Below, piece by piece: positions 5,496 through 64,000 of a stretch of 64,000 nucleotides of DNA. Source of the DNA: Spirochaetia bacterium (GTDB lineage: Bacteria; Spirochaetota; Spirochaetia; CADAEX01). The first letter of the stretch is position 1, and every line of letters begins with the position of its first letter. The stretch covers positions 6,201-70,200 of the forward strand of contig JAKSTW010000002.1 of the NCBI GenBank assembly GCA_024402405.1, in the 5' to 3' direction. The notes beneath the pieces were generated by a model. It was given only the letters and a program-made list of their open reading frames with translations. It made no database searches and had not been told where the DNA came from. The position numbers were made by a program, and so were the translations under genes.

Positions 5496-7123
5496 TCGTC
5501 CTCTCCTTTTATATTGCCTTTATTCTTTGTGTAATCCAGTGAAAATGCTGCATTGAGCTTGACACCGTAATATGGAATTCTGTATTCGCCGTGAAGTGTG
5601 AAGTCCAGATTTGATTCCTTGTGGATGCCCGATATGCCGTGATCCAGGAACTTGTACTCGTCATCCCAGTCTTTGTATGCACCGCCGATATCCCAGCCGA
5701 TGCCATCGTCATGAGCATGGGTATTTATGTTTCCGAATCCGTGCTGTGTGTACATGAAAGAAAGTCCTCCCTTCCATTCCGGAGATGCATTGTAGGTGAT
5801 GTCAGCATATACCAGCTGTGAGTTCGGAGGCAGAAAATGTCCTGCACTGCTTCCATAGTGGGAATAACTGTTTCTCTTGTCTCCTGAGAAGAGCTTGTGA
5901 GTGTACATCCAGTGAGACAGGTATGTGTATTCCAGTGTCAGGTCAAGTTTTGGGACAACATCATAGAATTTGTATCCTGCTGTGAGACCTGCGATATTAT
6001 GAAAGTAATTTATGTTGAACATCTTGTCGAAATCCCAGTCATCCATGTAAAGAGAAAGGTAGAGCTTTGTGGCACAGAATCTGAATACAAAGTCCATTCC
6101 TCCGAATTTGTTGTCTCTGTCTCCGCCGAACACCTCGCTGATGTAATAGAGTGAGAATGGGTTGATATAACCGGGGGCAAAACGCTGTGAGTATATTACA
6201 GTCTCATATACAGAGAACATGAACCATTTCCATGGCTGGAATTCAAACCGGTGGGAAGATATCATCTTGTCCTGATCCTCAGTGGCTCCGAATTCTTCCA
6301 CATCCCGCAGGAATCCTGTCATCCAGCTGTAGTACATTTTCCCGCCGATAGGAAAGTCGAAGAACAGATATTCATAAGGCTTTGATGTCTTTGAGAGTGA
6401 CAGTGATGCCAGCTCTCCCGGACCCCAGTTCAGAGCATTTCTTCCTGCTGATATATGGGTGAATGGCAGATCTGCTGAAAACTGGTTGATCTGATCCATT
6501 CTGAGTGAAAGCTCTGTGTCTCCCACAGACCTTTCGGCATGATGATTGAAACCCTTGTCCTTTGTGTCCAGGTTGTATGTGTACATATTGAAGTCAGGTT
6601 TCAGCGGGTCCTGATAAAGTCTGTAAGGGGCTGTCTCCCAGTTGTCCAGAACTGCGTATATATCGCTTCTGACTCCCAGGTACACATTCTTGCCGGCATA
6701 CAGATCCAGAATGAAATCACTTCCGACAGATGAGCTGTTATCCTGGAGATCTCCCAGATCCGCATTGAGGCCTGCATGCGGTGCCAGGTTGGCATCTGCC
6801 CCGAAATGCTCTCCTCTGTAGCTGAACAGATTGAACTTATCCCCTTTGAGCCTGTCGATATAGTGATAAAGCTGCTCCTTCTCTGAATCTGTCAGACTGT
6901 CTGGATTTTCCAGAACCAGAGCCTTCACCTCATTGAGATATTGCAGAGCCCTTTTCTCTGTGTATGGCTTTACGTCCGGCATATAATAGATCCAGCCTTT
7001 TGAATAAGCCTTATCAAGAAATTCATATACAGGGTCATCATAGACCAGGTTCTTGGCTGACTGAGCCGCTGCCGGTATTGCTGCCAGCGTTACGATAAGC
7101 AGGATGAATGCAAGTTTTTTCAT
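5450..7123 (-). CDS. Secreted outer-membrane protein, putative Wzi-like capsule-assembly family (tandem paralog B)
   Basis: The signal peptide is MKKLAFILLIVTLAAIPAAAQS. The motifs VYEFLDKAYSKGWI and AGRNALNWGPGELASL are homologous to the corresponding blocks in paralog A. The protein ends in an aromatic residue (WQAY). Confidence 0.45.
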   Translation of the reverse strand: MKKLAFILLIVTLAAIPAAAQSAKNLVYDDPVYEFLDKAYSKGWIYYMPDVKPYTEKRALQYLNEVKALVLENPDSLTDSEKEQLYHYIDRLKGDKFNLFSYRGEHFGADANLAPHAGLNADLGDLQDNSSSVGSDFILDLYAGKNVYLGVRSDIYAVLDNWETAPYRLYQDPLKPDFNMYTYNLDTKDKGFNHHAERSVGDTELSLRMDQINQFSADLPFTHISAGRNALNWGPGELASLSLSKTSKPYEYLFFDFPIGGKMYYSWMTGFLRDVEEFGATEDQDKMISSHRFEFQPWKWFMFSVYETVIYSQRFAPGYINPFSLYYISEVFGGDRDNKFGGMDFVFRFCATKLYLSLYMDDWDFDKMFNINYFHNIAGLTAGYKFYDVVPKLDLTLEYTYLSHWMYTHKLFSGDKRNSYSHYGSSAGHFLPPNSQLVYADITYNASPEWKGGLSFMYTQHGFGNINTHAHDDGIGWDIGGAYKDWDDEYKFLDHGISGIHKESNLDFTLHGEYRIPYYGVKLNAAFSLDYTKNKGNIKGEDEWRGILALGAKWQAY

Positions 7124-8241
7124 ATAAGTCCTCTTACTTTATCCATGGCCGACTTTATTGCCTGATCCATGTTGTAATATTTATATTCTGCCAGACGGCC
7201 TGTGAAGATGAAATGTCCGGTTTCCTCCAGCTTTCTGACCTCTTCCATGTACTGCTCCCGTTTTGCCATGTTTTCCTTTGTCATCACCACATAATATGGA
7301 TGACCGGTCTGCTTCGGATATTCCATGCAGATCACAGTCTTGTCTGAGGTCTCGCCTGTCATGTGCTTGAATTCTGTGATTCTGGTGAAGTCATAATCGT
7401 TAGGGTAGTTCACCACAGCTGCATCCTGATAGAATTCTCTGTCGATGGTTCTGAACTGGATGTCCACAGACCTGTATTCCAGCGGACCGTATTTGCAGTC
7501 AAAGAACTTATCCAGTGCACCGGTGTATACTGTGATACCTTTCTTTGGATCGAACATGGATGAGAGATTTTTCTTCAGCTGGAAATAGTCGCATCCTGTC
7601 ATAAGTGTGATATTGGGATGATCCAGCATTTTTTCTGTCATCTTTGTGTATCCGCCTATAGGTATGCCCTGATATTTATCTGCAAAGTAGCGGCTGTCCC
7701 TGCTGGAACGCACAGGAATTCTGGCTGCCACAGCGGCTGAGAGTTCCTTTGGATCCCGTCCCCACTGTTTGATGGTGTAATTCTTGAAGAAAAGCTCATA
7801 AAGCCTCTGTCCAACCTGTCCTATCACAGCATCCTGAAAGTTTTCAGCCGGAGTGGCGAAAGATGCCTTGGCTTTCTCTCTTTCCAGGAATGCAGGCACA
7901 TCCTCTGTGTTTATGTTCTCACCGAAGACCTGGTTTATGGTGTCTCTGTTGATCGGGAAAGGCACTGTCATTCCATGGACATAGCTCAGGACTTTATGCT
8001 GGAACAGTCTGAACTGGCTGAACCTGGAGACAAAATCCCATACATCCCTGAAATTTGTGTGGAAAATATGGGGCCCATGGGTGTGAACTGTGATTCCCGC
8101 CTCTGAAAGATAATCATGGCAGTTTCCTGCTATATATCTGTTCTGCTCGATTACCAGAACTTTTTTTCCTGCCTCTGCAAGCAGTCTGGCAGCTGTACTT
8201 CCTGACAGACCTGCACCTATGACCAGACAGTTGAATTTCAT
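7120..8241 (-). CDS. glf: UDP-galactopyranose mutase
   Basis: An N-terminal FAD Rossmann motif (VIGAGLSGSTAARLL) is followed by the Glf-typical NRYIAGNCHDY...HTHGPHIFHT. Confidence 0.8.
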   Translation of the reverse strand: MKFNCLVIGAGLSGSTAARLLAEAGKKVLVIEQNRYIAGNCHDYLSEAGITVHTHGPHIFHTNFRDVWDFVSRFSQFRLFQHKVLSYVHGMTVPFPINRDTINQVFGENINTEDVPAFLEREKAKASFATPAENFQDAVIGQVGQRLYELFFKNYTIKQWGRDPKELSAAVAARIPVRSSRDSRYFADKYQGIPIGGYTKMTEKMLDHPNITLMTGCDYFQLKKNLSSMFDPKKGITVYTGALDKFFDCKYGPLEYRSVDIQFRTIDREFYQDAAVVNYPNDYDFTRITEFKHMTGETSDKTVICMEYPKQTGHPYYVVMTKENMAKREQYMEEVRKLEETGHFIFTGRLAEYKYYNMDQAIKSAMDKVRGLI

Positions 8242-23014: not shown

Positions 23015-23638
23015 TTGATTTATTCGGAGGATCGAATGGAAGCTGTTACACGTATTTCTATTGTGAGACACGGTGAGACTGAATGGAATATTGATGACAG
23101 AATGCAGGGTATCAAAGACAGCCCTCTGACTGACAAGGGTATAAAACTGGCAAAGGAGCTGGGCGAAAAGCTTTCAGACATGAAATTTTCCAGAATCTAT
23201 ACCAGCGACCTGGGAAGAGCTTTTGATACTGCAAAATATATAAATGAGAGACTTGATCTGGAGATCGTCCCGGAGAAGCTGCTCCGTGAGCGCAATATGG
23301 GAATTTTCGAGGGATACAGCTGGGCTTATGTAAAGGAGCATTATCCTGAGGAGTTCAGAAAGACTGTCTCCGATGACATGGAGTACCGTATCCCTGGGGG
23401 ACAGAGCAAACAGGATTATGTGGACCAGATTGCGGATTTCATGAAATTCATCACTGAAAAGCATCCGGGAGAGAATATTCTGGCTGTGACACACCGTGGT
23501 TTCATCGACTTTTTCATGCGCCAGGTTATGGGCATATCTGTGAATGCCAGAAGATGCTTCAAGGTTGGTAATACCAGCCTTAATGTATTCTCATTTGAGA
23601 AAGGACGCTGGGTGCTGGAACATTTCGGAGATATCTGA
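23015..23638 (+). CDS. Histidine phosphatase family protein (phosphoglycerate mutase-like)
   Basis: It has the RHGETEWN catalytic motif. The start may be the M at 23036. Confidence 0.7.
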   Translation: MIYSEDRMEAVTRISIVRHGETEWNIDDRMQGIKDSPLTDKGIKLAKELGEKLSDMKFSRIYTSDLGRAFDTAKYINERLDLEIVPEKLLRERNMGIFEGYSWAYVKEHYPEEFRKTVSDDMEYRIPGGQSKQDYVDQIADFMKFITEKHPGENILAVTHRGFIDFFMRQVMGISVNARRCFKVGNTSLNVFSFEKGRWVLEHFGDI

Positions 23639-39640: not shown

Positions 39641-41422
39641 TCAGCGGATCAATGCCTTGGGTGATCTGCCTATAAGATCCCTGCGTCCTGCCAGGATCAG
39701 TGCTTTGCGTACTTTTTCCCTGTTCTCCGGCTTGTGGAAATGGAGCAGAGCACGCTGCATATTCTTCTCCTCCTCTGTCCCCGGCACATATACTTTCTTC
39801 ATTGTCAGCGGATCATAACCGGTATAATACATGCAGGTGGAAACAGTTCCTGGGGTAGGATAGAAATCCTGCACCTGGTCTGGTATGAACTTCTCATCCC
39901 GGAGGAATTCTGCCAGTTCTATTGCTGCCTTCAGGTCGCTGCCGGGATGTGAGGATATGAGGTATGGGATAAGATATTGTTTTTTCCCTATCCGCTCATT
40001 TTCCTCTTTGAACATCTTCTCAAATTTTCTGTAGACTTCCGGCCGTGGCTTGCCCATCAGATCCAGCACTCTGGCGCAGATATGTTCCGGTGCTATCTTC
40101 AGCTGTCCGCTTATGTGGTGTTGGCACAGCTCATGGAAAAATTCCTGGCTGCTGTCGGAGAGCAGATAATCAAAACGGATTCCAGACTTGATGAATACTT
40201 TTTTTATTCCAGGTATTGCCTTGAGCTTTCTGAGCAGTTCCAGATAATCCTCATGGCTTACCTTCATGTTTGGGCATGGCTTGGGAAAAAGGCATCTTCT
40301 GTCCTGACATGCTCCTGATTTCAGCTGCTTGTCGCAGGCAGGCTGCCGGAAATTGGCTGTAGGACCTCCCACGTCATTTATGTATCCCTTGAAATTCGGT
40401 TTCTTTGTCAGCCTGATTGCCTCGTCTATTATTGATTGATGGCTTCTGGCCTGAATGATCCTTCCCTGGTGGAATGTAAGGGCACAGAAATTGCAGCTGC
40501 CGAAACAGCCTCTGGCACTTATGAGACTGAATTCCACTTCCTTTATGGCCGGTACACCTCCATCTTTCTCATAGCATGGATGATATGTGCCCATATATGG
40601 CAGTGCATATACTCTGTCCATTTCCTCTGTTGTGAGGATTTTTGCGGGAGGGTTCTGGATCATATACTGGGTACCGGTTTTCTCAACCAGCATCTTGGCT
40701 GAGAATGGGTCTGTATTTCTGTACTGGATCGCAAAGCTCTTGGCAAAAGTTTTTTTGTCTGCCAGATCTTCCTCATATGATGGCAATGTTATGAGATCAC
40801 CTTCCGGGAGCTGTGAGCTTTTGACCACTGTCCCCCGGATGTCTTTCATATTTTTTATCTCCTCTCCTGCTTTGATGCGGCGGGAGATCTCCCAGAAAGG
40901 ATTCTCACCCATGCCATAGATCAGCATGTCTGCCTTGGAATCTGTCAGTATGGATCGGCGGAGTGAATCTGACCAGTAGTCGTAGTGGGAGAGTCTCCGG
41001 AGAGATGCTTCGATTCCTCCGATGATGATAGGGATGCCCTTGTATGCCTGCTTGGCCAAGGATGTATATACGATGATGGCTCTGTCCGGTCTCTTTCCTG
41101 CTATACCGCCAGGTGAGTACTGGTCTTTGCTACGGCGCTTGCTCTTTGATGAGAAATTTGCCACCATGGAATCCACATTTCCTGCATTTATCAGAAATGC
41201 CAGCTTCGGACGTCCCAGTGTCTTCACTGACTCAGGATCCTTCCAGTCAGGCTGAGGTATGATTCCTACCCTGAAACCTTCTGCTTCCAGCACTCTGGAT
41301 ACAATGGCAGTTCCGAAAGAAGGGTGATCCACATAGGCATCACCTGTAATTATGGCAAAATCAACAGAATCCCATCCTCTATTATGCATGTCTTCTTCTG
41401 AAATCGGCAGAAAATCTCTCAT
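39641..41422 (-). CDS. ygiQ: YgiQ-family (UPF0313) radical SAM protein
   Basis: It has a CxxxCxxC cluster (CFGSCNFC) and matches the YgiQ family N- and C-terminally. Length is 593 aa. Confidence 0.8.
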   Translation of the reverse strand: MRDFLPISEEDMHNRGWDSVDFAIITGDAYVDHPSFGTAIVSRVLEAEGFRVGIIPQPDWKDPESVKTLGRPKLAFLINAGNVDSMVANFSSKSKRRSKDQYSPGGIAGKRPDRAIIVYTSLAKQAYKGIPIIIGGIEASLRRLSHYDYWSDSLRRSILTDSKADMLIYGMGENPFWEISRRIKAGEEIKNMKDIRGTVVKSSQLPEGDLITLPSYEEDLADKKTFAKSFAIQYRNTDPFSAKMLVEKTGTQYMIQNPPAKILTTEEMDRVYALPYMGTYHPCYEKDGGVPAIKEVEFSLISARGCFGSCNFCALTFHQGRIIQARSHQSIIDEAIRLTKKPNFKGYINDVGGPTANFRQPACDKQLKSGACQDRRCLFPKPCPNMKVSHEDYLELLRKLKAIPGIKKVFIKSGIRFDYLLSDSSQEFFHELCQHHISGQLKIAPEHICARVLDLMGKPRPEVYRKFEKMFKEENERIGKKQYLIPYLISSHPGSDLKAAIELAEFLRDEKFIPDQVQDFYPTPGTVSTCMYYTGYDPLTMKKVYVPGTEEEKNMQRALLHFHKPENREKVRKALILAGRRDLIGRSPKALIR

Positions 41423-42461: not shown

Positions 42462-43460
42462 TTATCTTTTAAGTGCCATTGCACAGATTTTCTCGCACAG
42501 ATCTCCGAAAGAGATTCCCATTTTTGCCGCAGACTGGGGGAGCAGACTGGTGGCTGTCATACCTGGCAGAGTATTGATCTCCAGCACATAAATCTCGCCT
42601 TCCGGTGTCATCCTCAGATCGACTCTGCAGTAATTCTCGATTTTTGCTGCTTTGGCTGCAGCCAGTGCTATGGAACGCATTCTGTCTGATACAGCACTGC
42701 TGAGAGGTGCCGGGAAGATCTCCTCTGCTCCGCCTGGCATATATTTGCTCTGGAAGTCAAAGATCTCTGAAAGCTTAGGAATTATCTCACCGACTGCCAG
42801 CGCCTGTCCGTCCAGGATGCCGACTGTGAATTCCCTGCCTGGAATGAACTTTTCAAGCATGACCTCTGTATCATATTTACAGGCTGTTTCCACAGCTTTC
42901 TGCAGATCCTCCTGTTTCTTCACAACAGTGAGTCCTACTGTGGAGCCCTCTTTGTTAGGCTTGACGATAAGAGGAAGGCCCAGTTTCCGGACTGCTGCAT
43001 CCAGATCTGTGGGCATCATCAGCCATTCCGGAGTCGGAACTCCGTTTCTGACGAACATCATCTTTGAGATGTCCTTATCCATGCAGCATGCGCTCGGTGT
43101 GTGGGACGGACCTGTGTATGGAATGCCCATTATGTCCAGGAATCCCTGCATGGCACCATTTTCTCCCTTGCCGCCGTGAAGTGCCAGAAAGCATACATCT
43201 ATATTTTTAAAGATTCCCTGTGCTATAAGCGGCAGAAGTCCTCCTGTCATCATCTTCAGGCTGTCTGTGTCCGGTGGCAGCGGCGGCACCTTGCTGCTGA
43301 GAAATGCCTCCTCGTCCTGTGGCTTTATAAGGCCGGTTGCGGTATCTATGGCAATGACATTGTGTCCTCTGTCCCTCAGAACTTTGAAAACCTGGGCAGC
43401 ACTGGCGATGGAGACATCACGCTCTGAGCTCTGTCCCCCGAAAAGTACAGCTATATTCAT
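42462..43460 (-). CDS. ddl: D-alanine--D-alanine ligase
   Basis: It has the N-terminal motif VLFGGQSSERDVS and an ATP-grasp domain. Length is 332 aa. Confidence 0.85.
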   Translation of the reverse strand: MNIAVLFGGQSSERDVSIASAAQVFKVLRDRGHNVIAIDTATGLIKPQDEEAFLSSKVPPLPPDTDSLKMMTGGLLPLIAQGIFKNIDVCFLALHGGKGENGAMQGFLDIMGIPYTGPSHTPSACCMDKDISKMMFVRNGVPTPEWLMMPTDLDAAVRKLGLPLIVKPNKEGSTVGLTVVKKQEDLQKAVETACKYDTEVMLEKFIPGREFTVGILDGQALAVGEIIPKLSEIFDFQSKYMPGGAEEIFPAPLSSAVSDRMRSIALAAAKAAKIENYCRVDLRMTPEGEIYVLEINTLPGMTATSLLPQSAAKMGISFGDLCEKICAMALKR

Positions 43461-44818: not shown

Positions 44819-46426
44819 ATGTCTGAATTGGTATTGTTGGGAGATGAGGCAGTTGCTCTGGGTGCCATCCATGCCGGACTTTCCGGTGCCTATGGTTATC
44901 CTGGAACACCATCATCTGAGATACTTGAATATCTTATAAATGAAGCAGAGAAGACAAAGGCTTTCCATGCTTCCTGGTGCAGCAATGAGAAGACTGCTTA
45001 TGAGGATGCTCTTGGAACTTCTTTCGCAGGAAAGAGAGCAATTGTAACAATGAAGCATGTTGGTCTTAATGTGGCGGCTGATCCGTTCATGAACTCAGCA
45101 CTGCTGAAGATCAATGGCGGTCTGGTTATCGTTGTGGCTGATGACCCTGGTATGCACTCATCACAGGGTGAGCAGGATTCTCGTTTCTTCGCTGATTTTG
45201 CCAAGGTTCCATGTTTCGAACCTACCAACCAGCAGGAAGCTTATGAGATGACCCGCGAGGCTTTCGATATTTCTGAAAAATACAAGGTGCCTGTGCTTAT
45301 GAGAATGGTGACAAGACTGGCTCATTCCAGGGCTGTTATCACACCATGGGATAAGGTGAGGGCACAGAATCCGGTGAAACGTCCTGAAGATACAAAGGGA
45401 TGGAGACTGCTTCCTGCCCTGGCACAGAAACTCTGGGTTGAACTGCTGGAGACAAACAAGGAGTTTGCAGCATATTCTGAACAGACACCATTCAATAAAC
45501 TTACAATAAATCCTGACTGCAAGAAACTGGGTATCATCACAACAGGGCTGGGAAAGAACTATTTTGAAGAGAACCTGCCTGATATGGACTGCAAGCCTTC
45601 TCATCTGCATATCGGTTTCTATCCTGCTCCTGTGGAGAAGATCAGAAAACTGGCAGAAAATGTTGATAAGATTCTGGTTATAGAAGAAGGCTACCCTGTA
45701 ATTGAAACAAGACTCCGCGGTATTCTGCCACAGAATATTGCCATTGAGGGAAAACTTGACGGTAAGGTTCCTATGACCGGAGAGCTGGATCCGGATGTTG
45801 TCAGACCTGCTCTTGGACTGAGCAGAATTCCTAGCCGGAAAGTTGAAGGTCTTCCTGGACGTCCTCCACAGCTGTGCCAGGGCTGTCCTCATGTTGATTC
45901 CTATGAGGCTATCAATCTGGCTGTCAAGGACTATCCGCAGCACATTGTGGCTTCTGATATCGGATGCTATTCACTTGGTGCCCTGCCACCATATTGTGCC
46001 ATCGAGACGATCATCTGCATGGGTGCGTCCATCGGAACAGCACAGGGAGCTGCTGAAGCTGGTCTGAAACCTGCACTGGCTGTGATCGGTGACAGCACAT
46101 TCTATCATTCCGGTCTTACAGGACTGGTCAATGCAGTTGCTGCCAATGCACCTATGACAGTCATTATCCTGGATAACTCAACTGTGGCTATGACCGGGGG
46201 ACAGAGCACAATACTGCCATCCAGCAAACTGTATAATCTGGTCATCGGTCTTGGTGCTGATCCTGAGCATGTCAAAACTATTGTTCCTCTCAAGAAGAAT
46301 CTGGAGGAGAATGCGGCCATAATCAAGAAAGAAATGGAATATGAGGGATTGTCTGTCATCATTTCTGTAAGGGAATGTCTGGAAGAGGCAAAACGCCGTA
46401 TGAAAAGGGAGAGCTTGAAAAAATGA
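44819..46426 (+). CDS. iorA: Indolepyruvate:ferredoxin oxidoreductase alpha subunit
   Basis: It has a TPP-binding domain and ferredoxin-type Cys motifs (CQGCPH), followed by iorB. Confidence 0.8.
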   Translation: MSELVLLGDEAVALGAIHAGLSGAYGYPGTPSSEILEYLINEAEKTKAFHASWCSNEKTAYEDALGTSFAGKRAIVTMKHVGLNVAADPFMNSALLKINGGLVIVVADDPGMHSSQGEQDSRFFADFAKVPCFEPTNQQEAYEMTREAFDISEKYKVPVLMRMVTRLAHSRAVITPWDKVRAQNPVKRPEDTKGWRLLPALAQKLWVELLETNKEFAAYSEQTPFNKLTINPDCKKLGIITTGLGKNYFEENLPDMDCKPSHLHIGFYPAPVEKIRKLAENVDKILVIEEGYPVIETRLRGILPQNIAIEGKLDGKVPMTGELDPDVVRPALGLSRIPSRKVEGLPGRPPQLCQGCPHVDSYEAINLAVKDYPQHIVASDIGCYSLGALPPYCAIETIICMGASIGTAQGAAEAGLKPALAVIGDSTFYHSGLTGLVNAVAANAPMTVIILDNSTVAMTGGQSTILPSSKLYNLVIGLGADPEHVKTIVPLKKNLEENAAIIKKEMEYEGLSVIISVRECLEEAKRRMKRESLKK

Positions 46427-46989: not shown

Positions 46990-47014
46990 TTTCTGATCTG
47001 TTTTGTTTATACAG

Positions 47015-47042
47015 GCCGGCACAGGAAGTGCCGGCTTTTTTA
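47015..47042 (+). terminator. Rho-independent terminator after iorB
   Basis: The hairpin is GCCGGCAC-aggaa-GTGCCGGC, followed by T7. Confidence 0.65.
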
Positions 47043-47057
47043 TTTTAAAGATAAGAT

Positions 47058-47178
47058 GCTCTGTCCCCCTTGGAATATTTTATTTATAACATCATAAATA
47101 AAATAAATTATGATATATGAATTTTCCCTTTTCTTTCTTTCATTAGACTGGAAAATTGAATTTTTTGGGGGACAGAGC
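47058..47178. repeat. REPIN-like doublet: perfect 12-bp inverted repeats GCTCTGTCCCCC / GGGGGACAGAGC enclosing a 97-bp AT-rich spacer
   Basis: The inverted repeats are read directly from the sequence. The same core recurs at least 13 more times in the window. Confidence 0.6.
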
Positions 47179-47235
47179 ATGGAATTTTGAATCAAAATCC
47201 TATTTTTTTCACTATATGAAATAATAGGAGGATAT

Positions 47236-47706
47236 ATGAGCAGAAAGTGCAGGGTGATTGTGGATGGTGGTGTTTATCACATTTATAACAAAATAAATGC
47301 ATGTGAGTATCTTCTGGCAGATTCGGAGACAAAAGATTTATTTCTGAAAGTACTGACAGAAGCTAAAAAAATCAAAGAATTCAGATTCAGAATCAAAAAT
47401 CTTACGATCATGAATAATCATATTCATATGCAGGTAAAAATGGATCGCGGTGAAAATCTTTCCAAGGTAATGCAGTGGATATTTTCAGTATTTGCACAGA
47501 GATATAATAGAAAATATAGCAGAAAAGGACATCTGTGGATTGACAGGTTCAAGAGCAAAGTTATTGAAAGCATAACTACATTTGAAAAGGTTTTTGAATA
47601 TATAACAAATAATCCTGTCAAAGCTGGAATTGTCAATCATGCGGAAGATTATGAATATGGAGTGTTTCATATTTCAAGGAAATGGATAGGGCTTATAGAT
47701 TTTTAA
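47236..47706 (+). CDS. REP-associated tyrosine transposase (RAYT) / IS200-like Y1 HUH transposase (COG1943-type)
   Basis: It has the HUH motif HIHMQV, an N-terminal YHIYNK motif, GHLWIDRF and the hallmark C-terminal YITNNPVKAGIV motif. It is flanked by inverted copies of the GGGGACAGAG repeat. Confidence 0.65.
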   Translation: MSRKCRVIVDGGVYHIYNKINACEYLLADSETKDLFLKVLTEAKKIKEFRFRIKNLTIMNNHIHMQVKMDRGENLSKVMQWIFSVFAQRYNRKYSRKGHLWIDRFKSKVIESITTFEKVFEYITNNPVKAGIVNHAEDYEYGVFHISRKWIGLIDF

Positions 47707-47718
47707 TCTTTTTTGCTC

Positions 47719-47728
47719 CTCTGTCCCC
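47719..47728. repeat. Copy of the CTCTGTCCCC repeat (inverted relative to the copy at 47167), 13 nt downstream of the RAYT stop
   Basis: This is an exact 10-mer match. Confidence 0.6.
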
Positions 47729-47756
47729 GATTTATTTTCTATGTTATAATATCTGT

Positions 47757-48926
47757 ATGACCGATATGAATATTCTTAAAGGGCTCGTACATACTATTAT
47801 TCCTGAGATCGTGGAAATACGTCATCAGCTTCATCAGATCCCAGAGATTGCATTCAAAGAATATAAGACCTCAGCAAAAATAAGAGAAATTCTTGAACCT
47901 CTTGGGATGGAATTTTTACCGTCTATTTTTGAAACTGATGTGACTGCTGTTCTGGATAGTGGTAAACCTGGAAAAACTATTCTTCTGCGGAGTGATATCG
48001 ATGCTCTTCCGATAGAAGAGGCATGTTCTGTCCCCTATAGATCCCTGCATCCTGGATTTGCCCACAGTTGCGGTCATGATGGTCATATGGCGATTCTTTT
48101 GGGAACTGCCATGGTCCTTTCCAAAATGAAAGAACAGATAAATGGCAAGGTTAGGTTTTTATTTCAGCCGGGAGAAGAGAGTCTGGCAGGTGCAAAAAGT
48201 ATGGTGGAGGCTGGATATCTTCAGAAGGAGCCGGTTCCTGATGTGGCCTATGCTCTTCATGGATGGCCGGGGACAGAGCACGGATGTATAGAGTGCTGTC
48301 CTGGTCCTATCATGGCGTCCACTGATGATTTTATGATCACTCTTACCGGCGCAGGAGGCCATGGTGCCATGCCTGAGAAAGCTGTTGATCTGCTGGCTGC
48401 TGCTGCCGGGTTTATTCTTGCCATGAAAGAAGCTGTTTCCTGGATCTCAGCTCCATATGATCCGGCTGTGGTTTCTGTCTGTTCTGTTGAGGGAAAAGGC
48501 ACTTTCAATGTATTTGCTGACAGGATCATCCTGAAGGGAACCTCCCGTTATCTGAAAGATTCCACAGGAAATAAGATAAAGAAAACCATGGTGGAGCTTC
48601 TGGATAAATATATTCTTCCTTCAGGGGGGAAGTATGAGATAGTCAGTCCTCTGCCTGATTATGTTTCTGTGAATAATGATCCTGAACTTTATTCCCGTGC
48701 TGCTGAAATTGCTGAAAAGTATCTTGGCCGGGAAAAATGGAATGGCAATGGTATCTGTTCCATGTGTGGCGATGACTTCGGTTTTATCTCCAGAAAGATC
48801 CCAAGCCTTTATTTCCGATTGGGTGCGGGGACAGAGCACGCATCACTCCACAATCCTGCCTATGACTTTGCAGATGACACCATTGAGGACGGCATTCTCA
48901 TGATGTGCGGTCTGGTTCTTGGTTGA
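47757..48926 (+). CDS. M20D-family amidohydrolase (N-acyl-amino-acid amidohydrolase/hippuricase-like)
   Basis: It has the metal-binding motif SCGHDGH. The start is moved to MTDMNILKG; the ORF-track start at 47682 overlaps the RAYT. Confidence 0.7.
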   Translation: MTDMNILKGLVHTIIPEIVEIRHQLHQIPEIAFKEYKTSAKIREILEPLGMEFLPSIFETDVTAVLDSGKPGKTILLRSDIDALPIEEACSVPYRSLHPGFAHSCGHDGHMAILLGTAMVLSKMKEQINGKVRFLFQPGEESLAGAKSMVEAGYLQKEPVPDVAYALHGWPGTEHGCIECCPGPIMASTDDFMITLTGAGGHGAMPEKAVDLLAAAAGFILAMKEAVSWISAPYDPAVVSVCSVEGKGTFNVFADRIILKGTSRYLKDSTGNKIKKTMVELLDKYILPSGGKYEIVSPLPDYVSVNNDPELYSRAAEIAEKYLGREKWNGNGICSMCGDDFGFISRKIPSLYFRLGAGTEHASLHNPAYDFADDTIEDGILMMCGLVLG

Positions 48927-52275: not shown

Positions 52276-52312
52276 TTTCTGTGAACTGAAATGATATGAT
52301 AAGCTCATCGGG

Positions 52313-52322
52313 CTCTGTCCCC
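52313..52322. repeat. Copy of the CTCTGTCCCC repeat in the carB 3' flank, followed by GGTGGGCTTTTT
   Basis: This is an exact 10-mer match. Confidence 0.55.
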
Positions 52323-52350
52323 GGTGGGCTTTTTATTTGGAGGTGATCTT

Positions 52351-53040
52351 ATGAATGATGAATGTCTTATCTGCGGAAGACCGCTGGAGTATCTGGAATC
52401 AGATATTGTGATGGAATGTGCTGTGTGCCACAGGAAAGAGGCCAGCAGGACTCGGTGTGTCAGCGGTCATTATGTGTGCAATGAATGCCATGTCCGTGGC
52501 ATGGACGGTGTGATCGGCATTTGTATGAATGAATCTTCCAAAGATCCTGCTGCTGTGCTGGAAAAGCTTATGGCTCTTCCTTTCTGCCATATGCATGGTC
52601 CTGAACATCATGTGATGGTGGGAGCTGCTCTTCTGACTGCGTACAGAAATGCCGGCGGTGAGATAGATCTTGAGTCTGCTCTGCTGGAGATGATGCGGCG
52701 CGGCAAACAGGTTCCGGGCGGTGCGTGCGGATTCTGGGGGGCATGTGGGGCCGGTATAAGTACCGGTATGTTTATATCGATTATTTCCGGTTCGACTCCG
52801 CTGGCAGGAAAATCATGGGGACTGTCAAATCTCATGACATCCGGAGCTTTGGAAAAAATAGGTTCAGTCGGTGGTCCTCGCTGCTGTAAACGGGATTCTT
52901 ATCTGGCGATTCTGGCTGCTGTAGATTTTGTCAGAGAGAATTTTAGTGTCGCCATGGAAAAGTCTGATATAAAATGTTCCCGTTCCGGACAGAATAATCA
53001 GTGCATAGGTATCCGATGTCCTTTCAATAAGCATTGCTAA
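52351..53040 (+). CDS. Cys-rich hypothetical protein (multiple CxxC pairs; possible metal-binding)
   Basis: The N-terminus has CLICG...CAVCH...CNECH. A GGACGFWGACG motif and a C-terminal CIGIRCPFNKHC follow. The start is set at MNDECLICG with a GGAGG Shine-Dalgarno sequence. Confidence 0.5.
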   Translation: MNDECLICGRPLEYLESDIVMECAVCHRKEASRTRCVSGHYVCNECHVRGMDGVIGICMNESSKDPAAVLEKLMALPFCHMHGPEHHVMVGAALLTAYRNAGGEIDLESALLEMMRRGKQVPGGACGFWGACGAGISTGMFISIISGSTPLAGKSWGLSNLMTSGALEKIGSVGGPRCCKRDSYLAILAAVDFVRENFSVAMEKSDIKCSRSGQNNQCIGIRCPFNKHC

Positions 53041-54383: not shown

Positions 54384-55624
54384 TGAAAGGGAAGAGAGTG
54401 GTCATTACCGGGTTGGGTACTGTAAATCCGCTTGGTAACAATGTGTCTGAATTCTGGCAGGGACTGATGGATGCCAGATGCGGTATTGGTCTGATTACCA
54501 GATATGATGTCTCAGATTCAGAAGTTAAGATCGCAGGTGAGGTGAGGGATTTTGATCCTTCTTCTGTTATTGACAGAAAAACTGCCAGACGGATGGATCT
54601 TTTCTCCCAGTATGCCGTATATGCTTCTGCAGAGGCAATAAAGGATGCTTCCTTTGAGGAGAAATTCTGGGATGGGGACAGAGCAGGACTGGTGCTGGGG
54701 GTCGGTACCCTTGGCTGGACATCTGCTGAAGAAGGCTACGGAAAAATATTTTCTGGCGGTGAATCACGTGTTCCTGTTTTTACTATTCCTAAGATTATTC
54801 CTAATCTTGGTGCTGGAAATGCGGCCATGGCACTGCAGCTGCATGGTCCGTGCTTCTCTCTTTCCACTGCCTGTGCGTCAGGTGCTGATGCCATAGGAAA
54901 TGCGGCCAGGCTGATTGAATCAGGATATTGTGATGTGATGCTGGCAGGGGGGACAGAGGCGGGAATATCCAGACTGTGTATGGGCGGATTTGCCGCTATA
55001 CAGGCCCTGACGATGACTCATAATGATTCTCCTGAGATCTCAAGCCGTCCTTTTGACAGAGACCGGGATGGTTTTGTCATGGGGGAGGGAGCTGGAATGC
55101 TGGTGCTGGAGGATTATGAACATGCTGTCCGACGTGGGGCCAGGATTTATTGTGAGGTCGCTGGTTACGGCTCCACATGTGATGCTTATCATATGACGGC
55201 TCCTGAGCCTGACGGAAAATATTCGGTGAAAGCTATGAGCCGGGCATTGGAAAATGCAGGTATGGGGACAGAGGATATACAGTATATCAATGCCCATGGT
55301 ACTTCCACTGTATTAAATGACAGAATGGAGACCCGTGCTATAAAAAATATGTTCGGAGAGCAGGCATACAGGCTGAAAGTCTCATCGATAAAGTCCATGC
55401 TGGGACACTGTATCGGAGCTGCCGGAGCCATAGAGGCAATTTCATCGGCCCTGACACTGTATCATCAGTGGATACCTCCTACGATCAATTATGAAAATCC
55501 TGATCCTGAATGTGACCTTGATTATGTCCCGGGCAGGGGAATATCTGCAGAGGTCAGCGGTGTCATGTCAAATTCTTTCGGATTTGGCGGTCATAATTCA
55601 GTTTTGGTATTCCGCAGGATATAG
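54380..55624 (+). CDS. fabF: 3-oxoacyl-ACP synthase II
   Basis: It has the active-site Cys in ...LSTACASGADAIG, and His motifs (AHGTST, GHCIGAAGA). Confidence 0.85.
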   Translation: MMKGKRVVITGLGTVNPLGNNVSEFWQGLMDARCGIGLITRYDVSDSEVKIAGEVRDFDPSSVIDRKTARRMDLFSQYAVYASAEAIKDASFEEKFWDGDRAGLVLGVGTLGWTSAEEGYGKIFSGGESRVPVFTIPKIIPNLGAGNAAMALQLHGPCFSLSTACASGADAIGNAARLIESGYCDVMLAGGTEAGISRLCMGGFAAIQALTMTHNDSPEISSRPFDRDRDGFVMGEGAGMLVLEDYEHAVRRGARIYCEVAGYGSTCDAYHMTAPEPDGKYSVKAMSRALENAGMGTEDIQYINAHGTSTVLNDRMETRAIKNMFGEQAYRLKVSSIKSMLGHCIGAAGAIEAISSALTLYHQWIPPTINYENPDPECDLDYVPGRGISAEVSGVMSNSFGFGGHNSVLVFRRI

Positions 55625-56388
55625 GCAGACCAGCAGTAAGCTGCTATTCCGAAAGCTACTCCCACATTGATGGATTTTTTAACTCCGAAAAGTGGGATCG
55701 ATACTACTCCTCCGCTGCTTCTTGCTATTTCCAATGTCTCCGGACTGACCCCTGTTTCTTCCGAGCCAAGTATCATGATTCCATTTTCAGGAAATTTGAA
55801 TTCTTCTATGGGTGTACCATCTGTCTCCAGTGCAAATATGCTCTGTCCCCGGTGTGCGGCTTCCTTGAGTTCTGACAGTTCTGCCTGTCTCCAGCTGATC
55901 TTCTCCTCTGTCCCCATGGCGCTGCGTTTTGCTCTTGGCTGTTCTGGAGTTGGTGTTGCCGGAGAAAGCAATACTTCTGAAAAACAGAACGATTCTGCTG
56001 TCCTGAAGATTGAACCCACATTGAATGGAGACCGTAGATTCTCCAGATATACAGAAATCGGAAGTAGTCTGCGGCTGTCTCCGGCTGCATCAGTGTCCAG
56101 CATATCCCAGTCAGCGTACTGTATTCCGGCTTTATCCAGAATCTTATATTTCAGACTGTCCGCAGCCCATAGTGCTTCCGGACCATCAAGGCGGACTGCC
56201 AGATCTTCGATTTCTTCCTGAAACCTCTGTCCCCCTGATATAGCTGCTGCATTCAGGATCATCCGGAGATACTGAACATCTATTTCTTTTCCTTCTTTCA
56301 GTTGTTTTTCCGCATCTTTCAGTATAAGTGCCGCTTTCCTGTATTGAAGTCTGGGATCCAGTGATCTGAATTTTTTTTCTGTAAACAT
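55591..56388 (-). CDS. SpoU/TrmH-family RNA 2'-O-methyltransferase with N-terminal extension
   Basis: It has SPOUT motifs (NVGSIFRTAESF...ILGSEETGVS...INVGVAFGIAAY). Confidence 0.65.
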   Translation of the reverse strand: MFTEKKFRSLDPRLQYRKAALILKDAEKQLKEGKEIDVQYLRMILNAAAISGGQRFQEEIEDLAVRLDGPEALWAADSLKYKILDKAGIQYADWDMLDTDAAGDSRRLLPISVYLENLRSPFNVGSIFRTAESFCFSEVLLSPATPTPEQPRAKRSAMGTEEKISWRQAELSELKEAAHRGQSIFALETDGTPIEEFKFPENGIMILGSEETGVSPETLEIARSSGGVVSIPLFGVKKSINVGVAFGIAAYCWSAYILRNTKTEL

Positions 56389-57798: not shown

Positions 57799-57918
57799 AA
57801 TTAAATAATATATAATGGTCAAAATGATATTTCATTATCAAAATGATGTTTATAATTGACATTATTTTTTAATATTTGTATTCTCCTAGGTACAAATTAT
57901 TATAAAAGGAGAGGAAAA

Positions 57919-59787
57919 ATGAAAAAGTATTTTTTGCTGGCAGTGATGGCCGCACTGCTGGTAATGGCGGTATTTACTGGCTGCGACAATGGATCAAGCA
58001 GTCCTGAATCTAAATACATGGTAACCTTTGACCTGAACTGGTATGGTTCAGATCCGGCAGGAATGGGAGATGTAAAAGCCCCGAAGTCGGTGCGGTTTAG
58101 TGATGCTGATCAGATGATAACATTGCCTCAGGTACTGGACAGTGACGGTAATATTTATTTAACAGAGAATGGATATTATGTAGGCACATGGTATAAGGAT
58201 GCGGATCTTACCCAGAGTGCAGGAAGTGCACTTACAGGTGAAGCACAGTTTGCTCCTGGAGGAAACTGCATTCTGTATGCAGGCTGGTCAACCAAGACAG
58301 TGACCCTGGCATGGGATCTGAACTACCCTGCGGGGGTAAGTGCTCCTGAAAATCCAGCAAAATCAAGAGTTACAGCAGGAGCTGTAGTAACATCCGCAAA
58401 AGTGCCGACAGCAGATGCACTTCCTGACGGAACAGTGTTTGCCGGCTGGTTCGACAGTCCTGTGAACGGCGAGGGAAATCAGCTTGTTGCAGGCGAAACC
58501 AAGGCTCCGTTCAACGGCCTTACTTACTATGCACAGTGGAAGTACCCTGTAAAGGTTAAATACTTGCTCCCTGACGGAACAGAGTATATGACAGTGGATC
58601 AGAAGGCATATGATGCAGTGGAGATGCCGGCCGATCCAGTGCTTGATCCATGCTTTGCAGGCTGGTTCGACCAGGACGGTAAGATGCTCACAGCCGATGT
58701 AATCATAAAGAAGGATGCAGTCTACACAGCAAAGGCAGGCTACACGCTCGTCATAAACAAGACCACAGGACAGACAGACGGAGAGGCAGGAGTTGAAGTT
58801 GGCTCCGCCGCGCTCACAATCATAACAGAGCCTGATGACCATGCAAACGGAAAGTATGTAGAAGGCTATTATGCTGATGAGCCATGCACAACCAAGGTTG
58901 CATACAATGACGGAAAGCTTCTGCCGAACGTAACAGGCTATACAGATGCGGACGGAAAATGGGCAGGAGACAGCTCCAAAGTGCTTTATGCAAAGTGGAA
59001 GAAGCTCAGCAACATCGGAAGCACTCTTGTGTTCTACATCGACAAGACAAACGGTCGTGCTGCAAAGAACTACAAGTTCTATGATGCAAGTAACAACCTG
59101 CTCACAGCAGAAGAGGCAGCCGACAACGATTACGGCATAACCTTCAGCGGCACACCTGCTAAATATGCATACTACGGCGAGGGCAGGGACAGGTACTATG
59201 TAGTCAACGACACGCTGGACGAGGAGAAGACAGCATATACATGGGCATATTACACAGATGCAAGCACTTACAAGCAGGAAGAACTCTGTGTAGGAACATC
59301 ATATCAGGCAATCGGCAGTGGAAGAGCAAACACAGCCGAGATAATGGCAAAGGATGGAGGCAAGTATATCAGCGACAACAGCATAACAAGAGTATTAGGT
59401 GGCGCAAATAAGTCTGCTACAATCTGGTATGCGCTTGATGATTTGAATAAGCTGGCTGACGCTGAAACTGTAAGTACTGTCAGCGGTGGTAAGAACTTAG
59501 GCTGTACCGACTGGTTCGTGCCGTCGCTTAATGAGCTTCTGAAGATGACACGTCTTGTAGATAAGCTGACATGGAACGGTGGAGACAAGACAAAAACAGA
59601 AGAAGCTCCATATGCTTCAGACCCTGCATGGGCAGATCTCAAGGATTATGTTGCAGCCGGTTCCGAGTGGTCAAGTTCCGGCTACTCTGCTGCGGCTGCG
59701 TACGTATGGCGCTTCACTACGGGCCTGAGCATTTATTACGATAAGACTAATACGGCAGGCCGCTTAGATGCAGTGAGGGCTTTCTAA
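57919..59787 (+). CDS. Surface lipoprotein with Listeria-Bacteroides (InlB B-type) repeats and C-terminal DUF1566/Lcl-C-like domain
   Basis: It has a lipobox (VFTGCDNGSSS). Repeated F/Y-x-G-W-F/Y-D motifs include VGTWYKD, FAGWFDSPVNGEG and FAGWFDQDG. The C-terminus carries LGCTDWFVPSLNELL. The start is set at MKKYFLL with an AAGGAGAGG Shine-Dalgarno sequence. Confidence 0.65.
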   Translation: MKKYFLLAVMAALLVMAVFTGCDNGSSSPESKYMVTFDLNWYGSDPAGMGDVKAPKSVRFSDADQMITLPQVLDSDGNIYLTENGYYVGTWYKDADLTQSAGSALTGEAQFAPGGNCILYAGWSTKTVTLAWDLNYPAGVSAPENPAKSRVTAGAVVTSAKVPTADALPDGTVFAGWFDSPVNGEGNQLVAGETKAPFNGLTYYAQWKYPVKVKYLLPDGTEYMTVDQKAYDAVEMPADPVLDPCFAGWFDQDGKMLTADVIIKKDAVYTAKAGYTLVINKTTGQTDGEAGVEVGSAALTIITEPDDHANGKYVEGYYADEPCTTKVAYNDGKLLPNVTGYTDADGKWAGDSSKVLYAKWKKLSNIGSTLVFYIDKTNGRAAKNYKFYDASNNLLTAEEAADNDYGITFSGTPAKYAYYGEGRDRYYVVNDTLDEEKTAYTWAYYTDASTYKQEELCVGTSYQAIGSGRANTAEIMAKDGGKYISDNSITRVLGGANKSATIWYALDDLNKLADAETVSTVSGGKNLGCTDWFVPSLNELLKMTRLVDKLTWNGGDKTKTEEAPYASDPAWADLKDYVAAGSEWSSSGYSAAAAYVWRFTTGLSIYYDKTNTAGRLDAVRAF

Positions 59788-59838: not shown

Positions 59839-59875
59839 GCTCTGTCCACCAACTGCGGTGGACAGAGCTTTTATT
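59839..59875 (+). terminator. Rho-independent terminator whose stem is a variant of the window-wide repeat (GCTCTGTCCACC-aactgc-GGTGGACAGAGC + TTTTATT)
   Basis: It is a perfect 12-bp stem located 52 nt after the lipoprotein stop. Confidence 0.6.
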
Positions 59876-62770: not shown

Positions 62771-64000
62771 TGGCTTTTGTAAATCTTACCGGAGTTTCTC
62801 TGGCCTTCGGGGACAGAGATGTGCTTAAGGATGTGAATCTGAATATCTGCACTACTACCAGGGCTGCTATCACCGGAGCCAACGGCAGCGGCAAGACCAC
62901 ATTCCTGAAAATTATGGCTGGGAAGCTGTCACCTGACAAGGGTTCAACTATTATTCAGAAAGGGACACGTATCAGTTATCTGCCCCAGACAGGTCTTACT
63001 CATGCAGGCTCCACACTTATGGAAGAGGTGGAGAAATCATTCTCTTTTTTCCATACTCTCATAGCACGCAAGGAAGAAGTCGGGCGCCGTCTTGAGAATT
63101 ATATGCAGGAGACCAAGGAGGAGACCCAGCGTCTTCTGGAGGAAGATCATGATATCCAGGAAACTTTGCTGAACAGCGGATTTTATGACCGTAAGATAGT
63201 TAAGGAGAAAGTTCTGCTGGGACTTGGTTTTTCCAGAAATGACTTTGAAAAGAAGACCGAGGCTTTTTCCGGCGGATGGCAGATGCGCATAGCTCTGGCC
63301 AAGATTCTGCTGGAGAACCCTGATATCATGCTGCTGGACGAGCCTACCAACTACCTTGATCTGGAGGCCCGGCTATGGCTGGAGGATTTCATCAGTTCTT
63401 TCCATGGCGGAGTGGTTCTGGTTTCCCATGACCGATCTTTTCTTGATTCGACTGTAAATGAGATATATGAGCTGTTCGGCGGTACAATGAACCGTTATAA
63501 AGGTAATTACTCTGAATATGAGAAGCGGCGCAGCCAGGAGCTTGAGTCCCTGGTGAACCGTTATAAGCAGCAGCAGGATGAGATTGCCAAAGTCGAGCTT
63601 TTTATCCGCCGTTTCCGCTATCAGGCTACCAAAGCCAAACAGGTGCAGAGCCGTATAAAATATCTGGAGGGGCTTGAGCGCATTGAGATTCCTGAGAGCC
63701 TTAAAAAGATGCATTTCTCTTTTCCTGAGCCTCCACATTCCGGCAATGATGTTTTGATCCTGGAGGATCTGAGCAAGGCTTATGGCGATAACCATGTCAT
63801 AAATCATCTGGATTTCTTTGCCGCGAAAGGAGAGAAGATAGTCTTTGCCGGAAAAAACGGTGCCGGAAAATCTACCCTTATGCGTATAATCGCAGGAAAA
63901 GACAAGAATTATACCGGACTTGTGAAATATGGCAAGGATGTGAAGATAGAATATTTCTCCCAGGATTTTGAGGCCACACTGGATGATTCCAAGACAGTGG
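62770..64000 (+). CDS. ABC-F family ATPase (two tandem ABC domains), 3'-truncated by window end
   Basis: The first domain has Walker A GANGSGKTT, the signature FSGGWQMR and LLLDEPTNYLD. The second Walker A is GKNGAGKST. The start ATG overlaps the upstream stop (TAATG). The reading frame is open to the window end. Confidence 0.75.
   Translation, partial: MAFVNLTGVSLAFGDRDVLKDVNLNICTTTRAAITGANGSGKTTFLKIMAGKLSPDKGSTIIQKGTRISYLPQTGLTHAGSTLMEEVEKSFSFFHTLIARKEEVGRRLENYMQETKEETQRLLEEDHDIQETLLNSGFYDRKIVKEKVLLGLGFSRNDFEKKTEAFSGGWQMRIALAKILLENPDIMLLDEPTNYLDLEARLWLEDFISSFHGGVVLVSHDRSFLDSTVNEIYELFGGTMNRYKGNYSEYEKRRSQELESLVNRYKQQQDEIAKVELFIRRFRYQATKAKQVQSRIKYLEGLERIEIPESLKKMHFSFPEPPHSGNDVLILEDLSKAYGDNHVINHLDFFAAKGEKIVFAGKNGAGKSTLMRIIAGKDKNYTGLVKYGKDVKIEYFSQDFEATLDDSKTV

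Follow-up and report, generated by a model that had tools for sequence, protein, structure and literature searches.

A short dispersed motif tied to a RAYT-like Y1 transposase gene and concentrated in the coding DNA around it

RAYT-like Y1 transposases, named after the REP-associated tyrosine transposases (RAYTs), are found in about one quarter of bacterial species, and an activity has been proposed only for the groups that are associated with repetitive extragenic palindromic (REP) sequences or REPINs. For the large REP-less groups, including the TIRYTs, neither the distribution of the substrate nor the role of the protein is known (PMC5581495, PMC6006769). Here, we describe a 64-kb stretch of DNA from a Spirochaetia bacterium (hereafter the window) in which a gene of this kind, at positions 47236-47706, lies amid copies of a 10-nt motif, GGGGACAGAG, many of them inside intact enzyme genes. 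Judging from comparisons of sequence, the most likely cause of this pattern is a transposase-linked, mainly local conversion of near-matches into the recognition motif.

The closest described elements were reported by Di Nocera, De Gregorio & Rocco 2013 (BMC Genomics 14:522), who described RAYT-like genes that have terminal inverted repeats with the shared sequence GGGGWSAS on either side instead of REPs, and termed these units TIRtrons and their products TIRYTs; the repeats form moderately abundant families in some genomes, often as dimers or clusters (PMC3733652). Quentin et al. 2018 place most TIRYTs in TnpAY1 subclass 2.1, the equivalent of Bertels' RAYT group 1. Proteins of this subclass are ~238 aa long and have a C-terminal helix-turn-helix (HTH) and the signatures NHVH or NH[YF]H and YIELNP or Y[IV]HLNP, and no REP-like sequences were reported for it (PMC6006769). 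Bertels et al. 2017 obtained abundant flanking 16-mers for groups 2 and 3 only (PMC5581495). REPs and Rickettsia palindromic elements (RPEs) known from within genes are in-frame insertions that add ~20-30 residues to the protein (PMC3733652).

Two other kinds of short motif provide a useful comparison. The DNA uptake sequences (DUS) of Neisseria and the uptake signal sequences (USS) of Pasteurellaceae are 9-12-nt motifs that build up in situ at codons that tolerate them, irrespective of orientation and phase, and that have lineage dialects; they are evenly spread over core genomes and tied to a competence receptor. HIP1 (GCGATCGC) of cyanobacteria, a palindromic and genome-wide motif that has been discussed in relation to methyltransferases, has likewise been reported to spread through coding DNA by nucleotide substitution rather than by insertion.

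An initial annotation of the window drew attention to a 14-mer that occurs twice in one M20 amidohydrolase gene (47757-48926; its product matches Pfam Peptidase_M20). This 14-mer, GGGGACAGAGCACG, is indeed present exactly at 48269-48282 and 48827-48840, both on the + strand, with no further copy in the window and 0 matches in 100 dinucleotide-preserving shuffles, and translation confirms that the two share a codon phase and that each encodes G-T-E-H. However, k-mer counting over the window identifies the true repeat unit as the 10-mer GGGGACAGAG, mostly followed by C or G and then by A. No other 10-mer is as common in the window: there are 17 exact copies (9 on the + strand and 8 on the - strand) where ~0 are expected, and 0 copies in the block-shuffled window; one-mismatch variants are in excess as well (14 observed vs 2.8 expected). 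The 14-mer exceeds the family consensus GGGGACAGAGCA by only ~2 identical bases. Copy-paste between neighbouring copies was considered and rejected, since the flank identity of adjacent copies is no higher than that of non-adjacent ones, and for the same reason the 14-mer identity carries no extra meaning. The signal is the 10-mer core and not the 14-mer, and the two 14-mers, together with the copies noted earlier in a TrmH-like gene, are members of a single dispersed short repeat, GGGGACAGAG(C/G)A, whose 9-mer form is GGGACAGAG.

Thirteen of the 17 exact copies are in coding sequences and 4 are intergenic. All 13 coding copies are on the sense strand of their gene, including those in minus-strand genes, and all three codon phases are used, while 3 of the 4 intergenic copies surround the 156-aa open reading frame at 47236-47706. 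The copies are far from evenly placed: 15 of the 17 fall within 39.8-56.2 kb (scan statistic P < 5e-5), and the 9-mer family counts per 8 kb along the window are 1, 0, 1, 0, 2, 7, 8 and 3, with the transposase gene at 47.2 kb. Inside this dense zone we found 15 perfect and 4 one-mismatch copies, as opposed to 2 perfect and 10 one-mismatch copies outside it. The motif-poor left 39 kb consists of core housekeeping DNA, including pyc (pyruvate carboxylase), relA/spoT, prmC, prfA, parE/parC and argC/D/G; an island effect was rejected because the depleted 39 kb are ordinary core DNA. No hairpins surround the copies, except where a copy forms part of a terminator, no Rfam family matches within the window, and a literature search with the motif strings returned only unrelated primers.

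The organising feature of this pattern, which the initial annotation overlooked, is the gene at 47236-47706 (+ strand), which encodes a 156-aa Y1 (HUH) tyrosine transposase of the RAYT/TIRYT kind according to Pfam, NCBIfam and its motifs. The product matches Pfam Y1_Tnp (PF01797) with E = 3.4e-13 and scores 81.1 bits on NCBIfam NF047646 (REP-associated tyrosine transposase; cut-off 80), on which the homologue P0124 scores 85.3 bits; with the IS200 model NF033573 it reaches 28.8 bits, under the cut-off of 55. The HUH motif N-H62-I-H64 and the tyrosine motif Y122-I-x-x-N126-P127-V-K-A (Y122-I-T-N-N126-P127-V-K-A in the window) are invariant across 9 homologues and align with those of E. coli TnpAREP (4ER8), the only relative of the protein in the PDB. 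The window protein is atypical for TnpAY1 subclass 2.1: it is only 156 aa long and has no C-terminal HTH, and its NHIH and YITNNP motifs deviate from the subclass signatures. An extension is present in more distant relatives, which are 250-290 aa long. A 99% variant, MCQ2603602, is encoded in the 'Spirochaetia bacterium' metagenome-assembled genome (MAG) GCA_024500545.1, and contigs of run SRR17543905 match the window at 99.99-100% identity. Close relatives (99.7%) have every motif site in common with the window, with no polymorphic gain or loss caught. The same MAG encodes at least 3 proteins of the family, of which MCQ2604196 and MCQ2604293 are the same in sequence and 62% identical to the window protein.

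Syntenic relatives reveal what this region looks like in the absence of the gene. The gene order FKBP, ddl, aminotransferase, iorA, iorB, amidohydrolase, carB is conserved in two related species (loci L166-L170), with 90-91% identity to the window for IorA, 88-89% for CarB and 56-65% for the amidohydrolase; the best carB relative in the genome collection comes from a Treponema sp. MAG (89% amino-acid identity). In these loci a mere 7 bp separate the iorB stop codon from the amidohydrolase ATG, with no transposase gene there, and the orthologous DNA, in which the initial annotation had proposed to look for the motif, lacks the 10-mer over 14-21 kb (over 6 kb in L168, which is short), as against 15 copies in the homologous stretch of the window. 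Since these relatives have neither the gene nor the copies, the stretch 46990-47756 represents a cassette that was inserted, and the motifs in the neighbouring genes are a derived state. This comparison thus shows the cassette to be an insertion into a conserved iorB-amidohydrolase junction.

The cassette (46990-47756, + strand) comprises the iorB terminator, three motif copies, AT-rich spacers and the transposase gene. Its left edge is marked by an intrinsic-terminator-like hairpin after iorB (47013-47037, + strand; a 10-pair stem followed by a T run in the terminator scan). The gene-proximal motif copy, tGGGGGACAGAGCATGg, lies at 47168-47177 (+ strand), 58 nt before the transposase ATG, and shows no hairpin (z = 0.28); a second, at 47719-47728 on the - strand, lies 13 nt past the stop codon and is inverted relative to the first, with 10-nt arms that are 100% complementary. 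The third intergenic copy (47059-47068, - strand) has 25-nt arms that are 80% complementary with 47167-47191. None of the copies around the gene has secondary structure (z = 0.28 to 0.52), nor do they form a REP-type hairpin with a GT[AG]G foot. Gene callers begin the amidohydrolase at 47682, the start of its longest open reading frame, which lies within the transposase gene, while orthologues start at the Met at 47757 (MTDMNILKG...); the resulting 25-residue unconserved N-terminal extension is probably an annotation artefact that masks the intergenic copy at 47719.

In several respects this arrangement resembles a TIRtron. A RAYT-like Y1/HUH gene is accompanied by short inverted repeats at a fairly fixed distance from it, distant relatives of the transposase carry GGGGTCAG, and, because GGGGACAG fits GGGGWSAS exactly (W = A, S = C, A, S = G), the cassette qualifies as a TIRtron-like element. 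On the other hand, the dispersed unit in the window lineage is the 10-13-nt core alone, 13 of 17 exact window copies are written in place in coding sequences, copies are concentrated within ~8 kb of the gene, and the full inverted-repeat arrangement is present in only 10 of 78 relatives.

The link between motif and gene extends well beyond this locus. A 62%-identical homologue sits in another context, between secDF and a tRNA gene on one side and DUF2400 on the other, on a 9.4-kb contig with 11 exact copies, two of which are just upstream of the gene. A metagenome scan with the alignment of the protein provided 80 loci with 40-53% identity, from termite guts, sediments and sludge and with a G+C content of 25-67%. 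In 76 of 78 homologous loci a motif copy lies within 300 bp upstream of the gene (~6 loci expected; median distance 76 nt), and in 60 of these 76 the nearest upstream copy has the orientation of the gene. In most loci this copy is just 5' of a promoter-like -35/-10 pair, even in contigs that contain almost no other copies. In nearly every locus of more than 3 kb, the most abundant 10-mers are variants of the motif, or dialects, namely GGGACAGAGC(T), GGGACAGAGG(ATT), GGGACAGACC / GGGGACAGACC, or GGGACGGAGG, and 33 of 40 loci share their dialect with the closest relative at the protein level. As a control, 80 carB loci of other organisms (1.4 Mb) contain 0.03 copies/kb. Distant relatives (30-37% identity) have related motifs in the equivalent place: GGGACGGTT, within a short hairpin, in Acetoanaerobium noterae, and GGGGTCAGG(C/T)(C/T)T in a Sporomusa plasmid, a Legionella plasmid and a viral contig. 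An association with phages was considered and rejected, as the viral contigs gave a single distant match. These observations show that the motif is tied to the transposase gene family across many lineages, with lineage-specific dialects. A Y1 gene, usually in low copy number, that is flanked by a cognate repeat, the co-variation of repeat and protein, and a repeat dispersed from gene-proximal copies are also features of the REP/REPIN-RAYT systems (E. coli TnpAREP, Pseudomonas REPINs). In contrast to those, the motif of the window has no GT[AG]G foot, hairpin or inverted doublets, is not confined to extragenic DNA, and is local instead of genome-wide.

The copies of 34 pooled loci comprise 190 in sense and 158 in antisense orientation as well as 184 between genes, and the codon phases are used 62/64/64 times, so that no general explanation by reading frame applies. 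An RNA-level or strand-specific function was rejected, since the all-sense pattern of the window has no counterpart in these pooled loci; the orientation of the 13 coding copies is peculiar to the window lineage. Dependence of orientation on the side of the transposase gene was also rejected (left, 100 + and 98 -; right, 113 + and 124 -). The conserved stretch around the motif is only 11-13 nt long and has no palindromic arms, and adjacent copies no more than 60 nt apart are mostly direct (99 vs 17 inverted), with no REPIN-like inverted doublet unit. Loci from termite guts contain tandem arrays with a period of 18-37 nt. Intergenic arrays of the dialect GGGGACAGACC are found in L111 (3119-3230 and 7860-8040), L090 (172-360) and L103 (4552-4620), with copy numbers that differ between close relatives by indels.

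The promoter-proximal copy present in most loci, the preference for direct pairs and the tandem arrays, which recall iterons, are what one might expect if the motif were a selected protein-binding site, serving in autoregulation, as a decoy or titration array, or as a centromere- or nucleoid-like cluster, and if the transposase-like protein merely bound DNA. We consider this improbable. The positions of the sites are not conserved between relatives, and selection on each extra site would be weak, yet sites within enzymes took up to 8 nucleotide changes. The invariant catalytic HUH and Tyr residues also argue for a retained nuclease/ligase chemistry.

The concentration of copies around the gene recurs in other lineages. 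Summed over flanks with a full 10 kb, the copies in successive kb from the gene number 42, 34, 28, 33, 28, 37, 28, 22, 6 and 10. Across 18 independent loci, copies number 1.15/kb between 0.3 and 8 kb from the gene and 0.33/kb between 8 and 10 kb (ratio 3.5, bootstrap 95% interval 2.0-8.4), which shows that copies are concentrated within ~8 kb of the gene. On NZ_CP154629.1 of Acetoanaerobium noterae there are 26 copies in 360.9-423.2 kb, with the transposase gene at 421.9 kb, and none in the 19 kb past 423.2 kb or in two remote 50-kb samples; the repeat, AATCAnnA-GGGACGGTT-CTTTTTGATT, is thus confined to 360.9-423.2 kb among the regions sampled. This record (our locus records L171 and L173-L175) is labelled a 2.63-Mb 'plasmid' with 4 annotated features and is chromosome-sized in appearance.

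Could the dense zone have been imported as a whole? Under this explanation, the cassette entered by homologous recombination from a donor with a genome-wide abundance of the motif and brought ~8 kb along on each side. The cassette is an insertion relative to the syntenic relatives, the dense zone is roughly centred on it, and recombination tracts of several kb are common. Nevertheless, none of the ~18 sampled lineages has the sustained high density expected of a donor, most of them dropping beyond 8 kb, and one-mismatch copies are ~5x enriched outside the dense zone too. Further information comes from syntenic relatives at 72-77% DNA identity (L139, L146 and L165), which have the transposase gene at the same place and whose coding motif sites are partly common and partly different, as expected from long residence and turnover. 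L139 and L146 belong to another clade than the window, and at one length-preserving patch GGGGACAGAGCT in L139 corresponds to CGGAATCTCACT in L146, with 6 of 9 core positions differing vs 2 of 18 flank positions. Since the sites of these relatives are only partly shared, a lasting local process is indicated rather than a single import, and we regard an imported tract as unlikely, even if it is the strongest of the alternatives; behind it come, in descending order, the selected array discussed above and three that are taken up below: a DNA uptake sequence, REP insertion of the classical kind, and either coincidence or a polar motif.

The way in which the coding copies arose can be read from the proteins themselves. 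We compared 11 coding sites with their orthologues (2 in the amidohydrolase gene, 2 in ddl, 1 in iorA, 3 in fabF and 3 in the TrmH/SpoU gene), and protein length is kept at 10 of them. In an alignment of 22 amidohydrolase sequences, both sites are length-preserving and lie directly after an invariant Gly, with WPG-TEH-G and LGAG-TEH-A in the window vs WPG-VPx-G and LGMG-Exx-P in orthologues. The first copy (48269-48282; P-G-T-E-H-G) gives WPGTEHG where the orthologue has WPGVPAG, and the second (48827-48840; A-G-T-E-H-A) gives GAGTEHA in place of GMGENYP, neither with an indel; at the DNA level ~8 of 12 nt differ from relatives at these sites. T-E-H is therefore unique to the lineage at both sites and replaces variable residues, and is not the product of conserved active-site residues that happen to be encoded by similar codons. 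An internal duplication, which the initial annotation had already discounted, is rejected by our comparison also, since the flanks of the two copies are unrelated and the orthologues lack the repeat.

The TrmH/SpoU gene (55591-56388, - strand) does contain the three core copies listed in the initial annotation, but in two codon phases rather than three different frames, with 55841 and 56225 sharing a phase from which 55906 differs. The copy at 55841-55850 (-, R-G-Q-S) is accompanied by a window-specific insertion of 5 residues, EAAHR, directly 5' of it. The one at 55906-55915 (-, G-T-E-E) falls on a conserved M-G-T and then a variable residue, with no indel, and the one at 56225-56234 (-, G-G-Q-R) falls within a hypervariable linker whose length is unchanged relative to P0139, the closest homologue. 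In fabF, the copy at 54674-54683 (+, G-D-R) occupies a variable position with no indel relative to the FabF proteins of the PDB, while that at 54949-54958 (+) coincides with a conserved GGTEA, kept in 1e5m and 4ls5, for which the choice of codons sufficed; that at 55264-55273 (+, M-G-T-E) yields GMGTEDI vs GLKPEMV or GIAPEEI, again with no indel. The iorA copy (46197-46206, +) encodes T-G-G-Q-S-T where relatives have TGGQTT or TGGQAT, a difference of 3 nucleotide changes and no indel. In ddl, the copy at 43429-43438 (-) lies on a conserved F-G-G-Q-S-S and needed one synonymous change, GGC to GGG, relative to both relatives, and the 9-mer copy AGGGACAGAG at 43367-43375 (-) gives LRDRGH vs LKELGH or LKEMGH with no indel. 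The highly conserved carB gene, in the middle of the dense zone, has no motif copy.

These comparisons show that the coding copies arose in place, through substitutions that kept the length and fell either on variable residues or on Gly-rich peptides (GGxS, GGTE, MGT) already close to encoding the motif. In other words, the motif is written onto tolerant codons, preferentially where Gly-rich peptides already part-matched it. Because 10 of 11 sites are length-preserving and fall on variable or compatible conserved Gly-rich codons, both insertion and pure codon-usage coincidence are excluded as the origin of these copies; of what the initial annotation offered, recurrent insertion is thus ruled out, while its view that the motif was imposed on intact enzymes is borne out. 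The possibility that conserved residues account for the matches holds for some sites (Ddl FGGQSS, FabF GGTEA and SpoU MGT, where synonymous or few changes were needed), and not in general.

This mode of origin bears on three further explanations. The first is that the motif is a REP/REPIN or RPE-like element of the classical mobile type, inserted in frame into genes. The gene belongs to the RAYT superfamily, and intragenic REPs and RPEs, which like the window motif are repeat-family sequences inside intact, functional-looking genes, are known (PMC3733652). However, 10 of 11 coding sites add no residues, as compared with 20-30 aa in the known intragenic REPs, no palindrome surrounds the copies (z ~0), conservation extends over 11-13 nt only, and close pairs are direct rather than inverted, all of which makes this explanation very doubtful.

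A second explanation, a DNA uptake sequence like Neisseria DUS or Haemophilus USS that results from biased uptake in natural transformation, is considered scarcely more probable. A 10-12 nt motif that is >100x over-represented in both orientations and all three codon phases, its in-place origin in tolerant codons, lineage dialects and occasional inverted pairs in terminators are all as in such systems, and the mode of sequence evolution of the window motif is indeed alike. What sets it apart is that it is locally concentrated and tied to a transposase gene, the link being present in 76 of 78 loci. It is also uneven over core genes, with 1 exact copy in 39 kb of housekeeping DNA vs 15 in 17 kb around the gene, and 0 copies occur in syntenic relatives or in the two remote 50-kb samples of Acetoanaerobium. 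HIP1 offers a similar parallel in its reported spread through coding DNA by substitution, but is not centred on a Y1 transposase gene.

The third and least probable, which the comparison with orthologues and the strand counts refute, holds that codon usage on conserved peptides produces the matches by coincidence, or that the motif is a polar one of the chromosome, like Chi or KOPS. Coincidence would fit the three sites on conserved peptides (Ddl GGQS, FabF GGTE and SpoU MGT), but most sites replace variable residues and shuffles contain 0 copies. As for a polar motif, the strands are occupied 9:8 even though the cumulative GC skew climbs near-monotonically across the window, so there is no replication polarity.

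Taken together, we think it probable, on the strength of these sequence patterns, that GGGGACAGAG(C/G)A is the cognate DNA motif of the TIRtron-like Y1 transposase encoded at 47236-47706, and that a local process converts near-matches to the motif. By analogy with TnpAREP, which recognises GTAG and a hairpin, the transposase would bind the motif on single-stranded DNA; it would probably also nick it there and act mainly near its own gene (a cis preference). A nick- or repair-linked bias in repair or fixation could then turn near-matches into perfect matches, in what might be called a local 'motif drive', and purifying selection on host proteins would subsequently filter the copies that survive. 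A more specific version, in which a domesticated or semi-domesticated HUH/Y1 enzyme acting in cis itself rewrites near-cognate 10-12-nt patches within ~8 kb while keeping their lengths, is possible but more speculative.

Several observations weigh against this explanation. To our knowledge, no Y1/HUH reaction replaces 10-12 nt in place. The association with the gene is no proof that the enzyme creates the copies, as the cassette could prefer motif-rich DNA as a landing site. The evidence for a local excess comes from one 64-kb window, metagenome flanks of at most 10 kb and one distantly related complete genome, and in the latter, Acetoanaerobium, the distribution is regional yet lopsided (61 kb to the left of the gene vs 1.3 kb to the right). 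In some loci (L159, for instance) the density has not dropped by 10 kb, and copies outside the zone occur at ~0.1/kb, so that the action is not strictly local. The arrangement with a + copy upstream and a - copy downstream of the gene is limited to the 10 of 78 loci mentioned above, the NF047646 score of the window transposase is only marginally over the cut-off, and the MAG GCA_024500545.1 has at least 2 more genes of the transposase family.

The explanation invokes a short repeat of the TIRtron kind; what is new is the in-place colonisation of neighbouring coding DNA, and in the literature searched we found no description of a transposase motif being written in place into neighbouring genes. 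Should the in-place changes be the work of the enzyme, a mobile-element protein would be shaping coding sequence in a novel manner, by short, length-preserving and position-dependent changes whose outcome resembles uptake-sequence drive but is centred on a gene. This activity would also provide the first functional handle on the large RAYT/TIRYT groups without a known cognate repeat or role. The window locus and ~80 related ones indicate that one REP-less RAYT clade has a clear cognate motif with co-varying dialects, a conserved copy before the gene, tandem arrays and an excess that reaches essential genes, so that the function of REP-less RAYT groups becomes testable. Repeats of this kind are missed by repeat finders based on 16-mers or hairpins, and annotation pipelines call the gene just 'transposase'.

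The remaining exact copies in the window lie in genes at or beyond the margins of the dense zone and in a terminator. The leftmost copy of the zone encodes G-T-E-E in a radical-SAM gene (39773-39782, - strand). Outside it, a copy at the start of an ABC-F gene encodes F-G-D-R-D (62809-62818, + strand), and one in a histidine-phosphatase gene, encoding G-G-Q-S (23397-23406, + strand), is the sole exact copy of the first 39 kb. The terminator hairpin of carB (52301-52330; -8.5 kcal/mol, z = -4.07, followed by a T run) has a motif copy as its loop and part of its stem (52313-52322, - strand). The hairpin after the gene at 57856-59787 (59839-59868, + strand; -14.3 kcal/mol, z = -5.23) has a perfect 12-bp stem whose arms, GCTCTGTCCACC and GGTGGACAGAGC, are a one-mismatch variant of the motif, and in L084 a hairpin like it (7204-7238) is built of two exact motif copies.

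A few other features of the region are worth recording. Directly after carB lies a DUF5714 gene (52324-53040; E = 2.7e-71), followed by a Na+/H+ antiporter-family gene, where the syntenic relatives have Abi_2 and adenosine deaminase genes instead. The CarB proteins on two short contigs, L001 and L006, which are binned as Sodaliphilus / Muribaculaceae (Bacteroidota), are 77% and 70% identical to that of the window, above most matches, which may reflect mis-binning. Finally, two adjacent paralogous genes at 3831-7123, encoding proteins of 554 and 557 aa with weak matches to the capsule assembly protein Wzi, adjoin a UDP-galactopyranose mutase gene.

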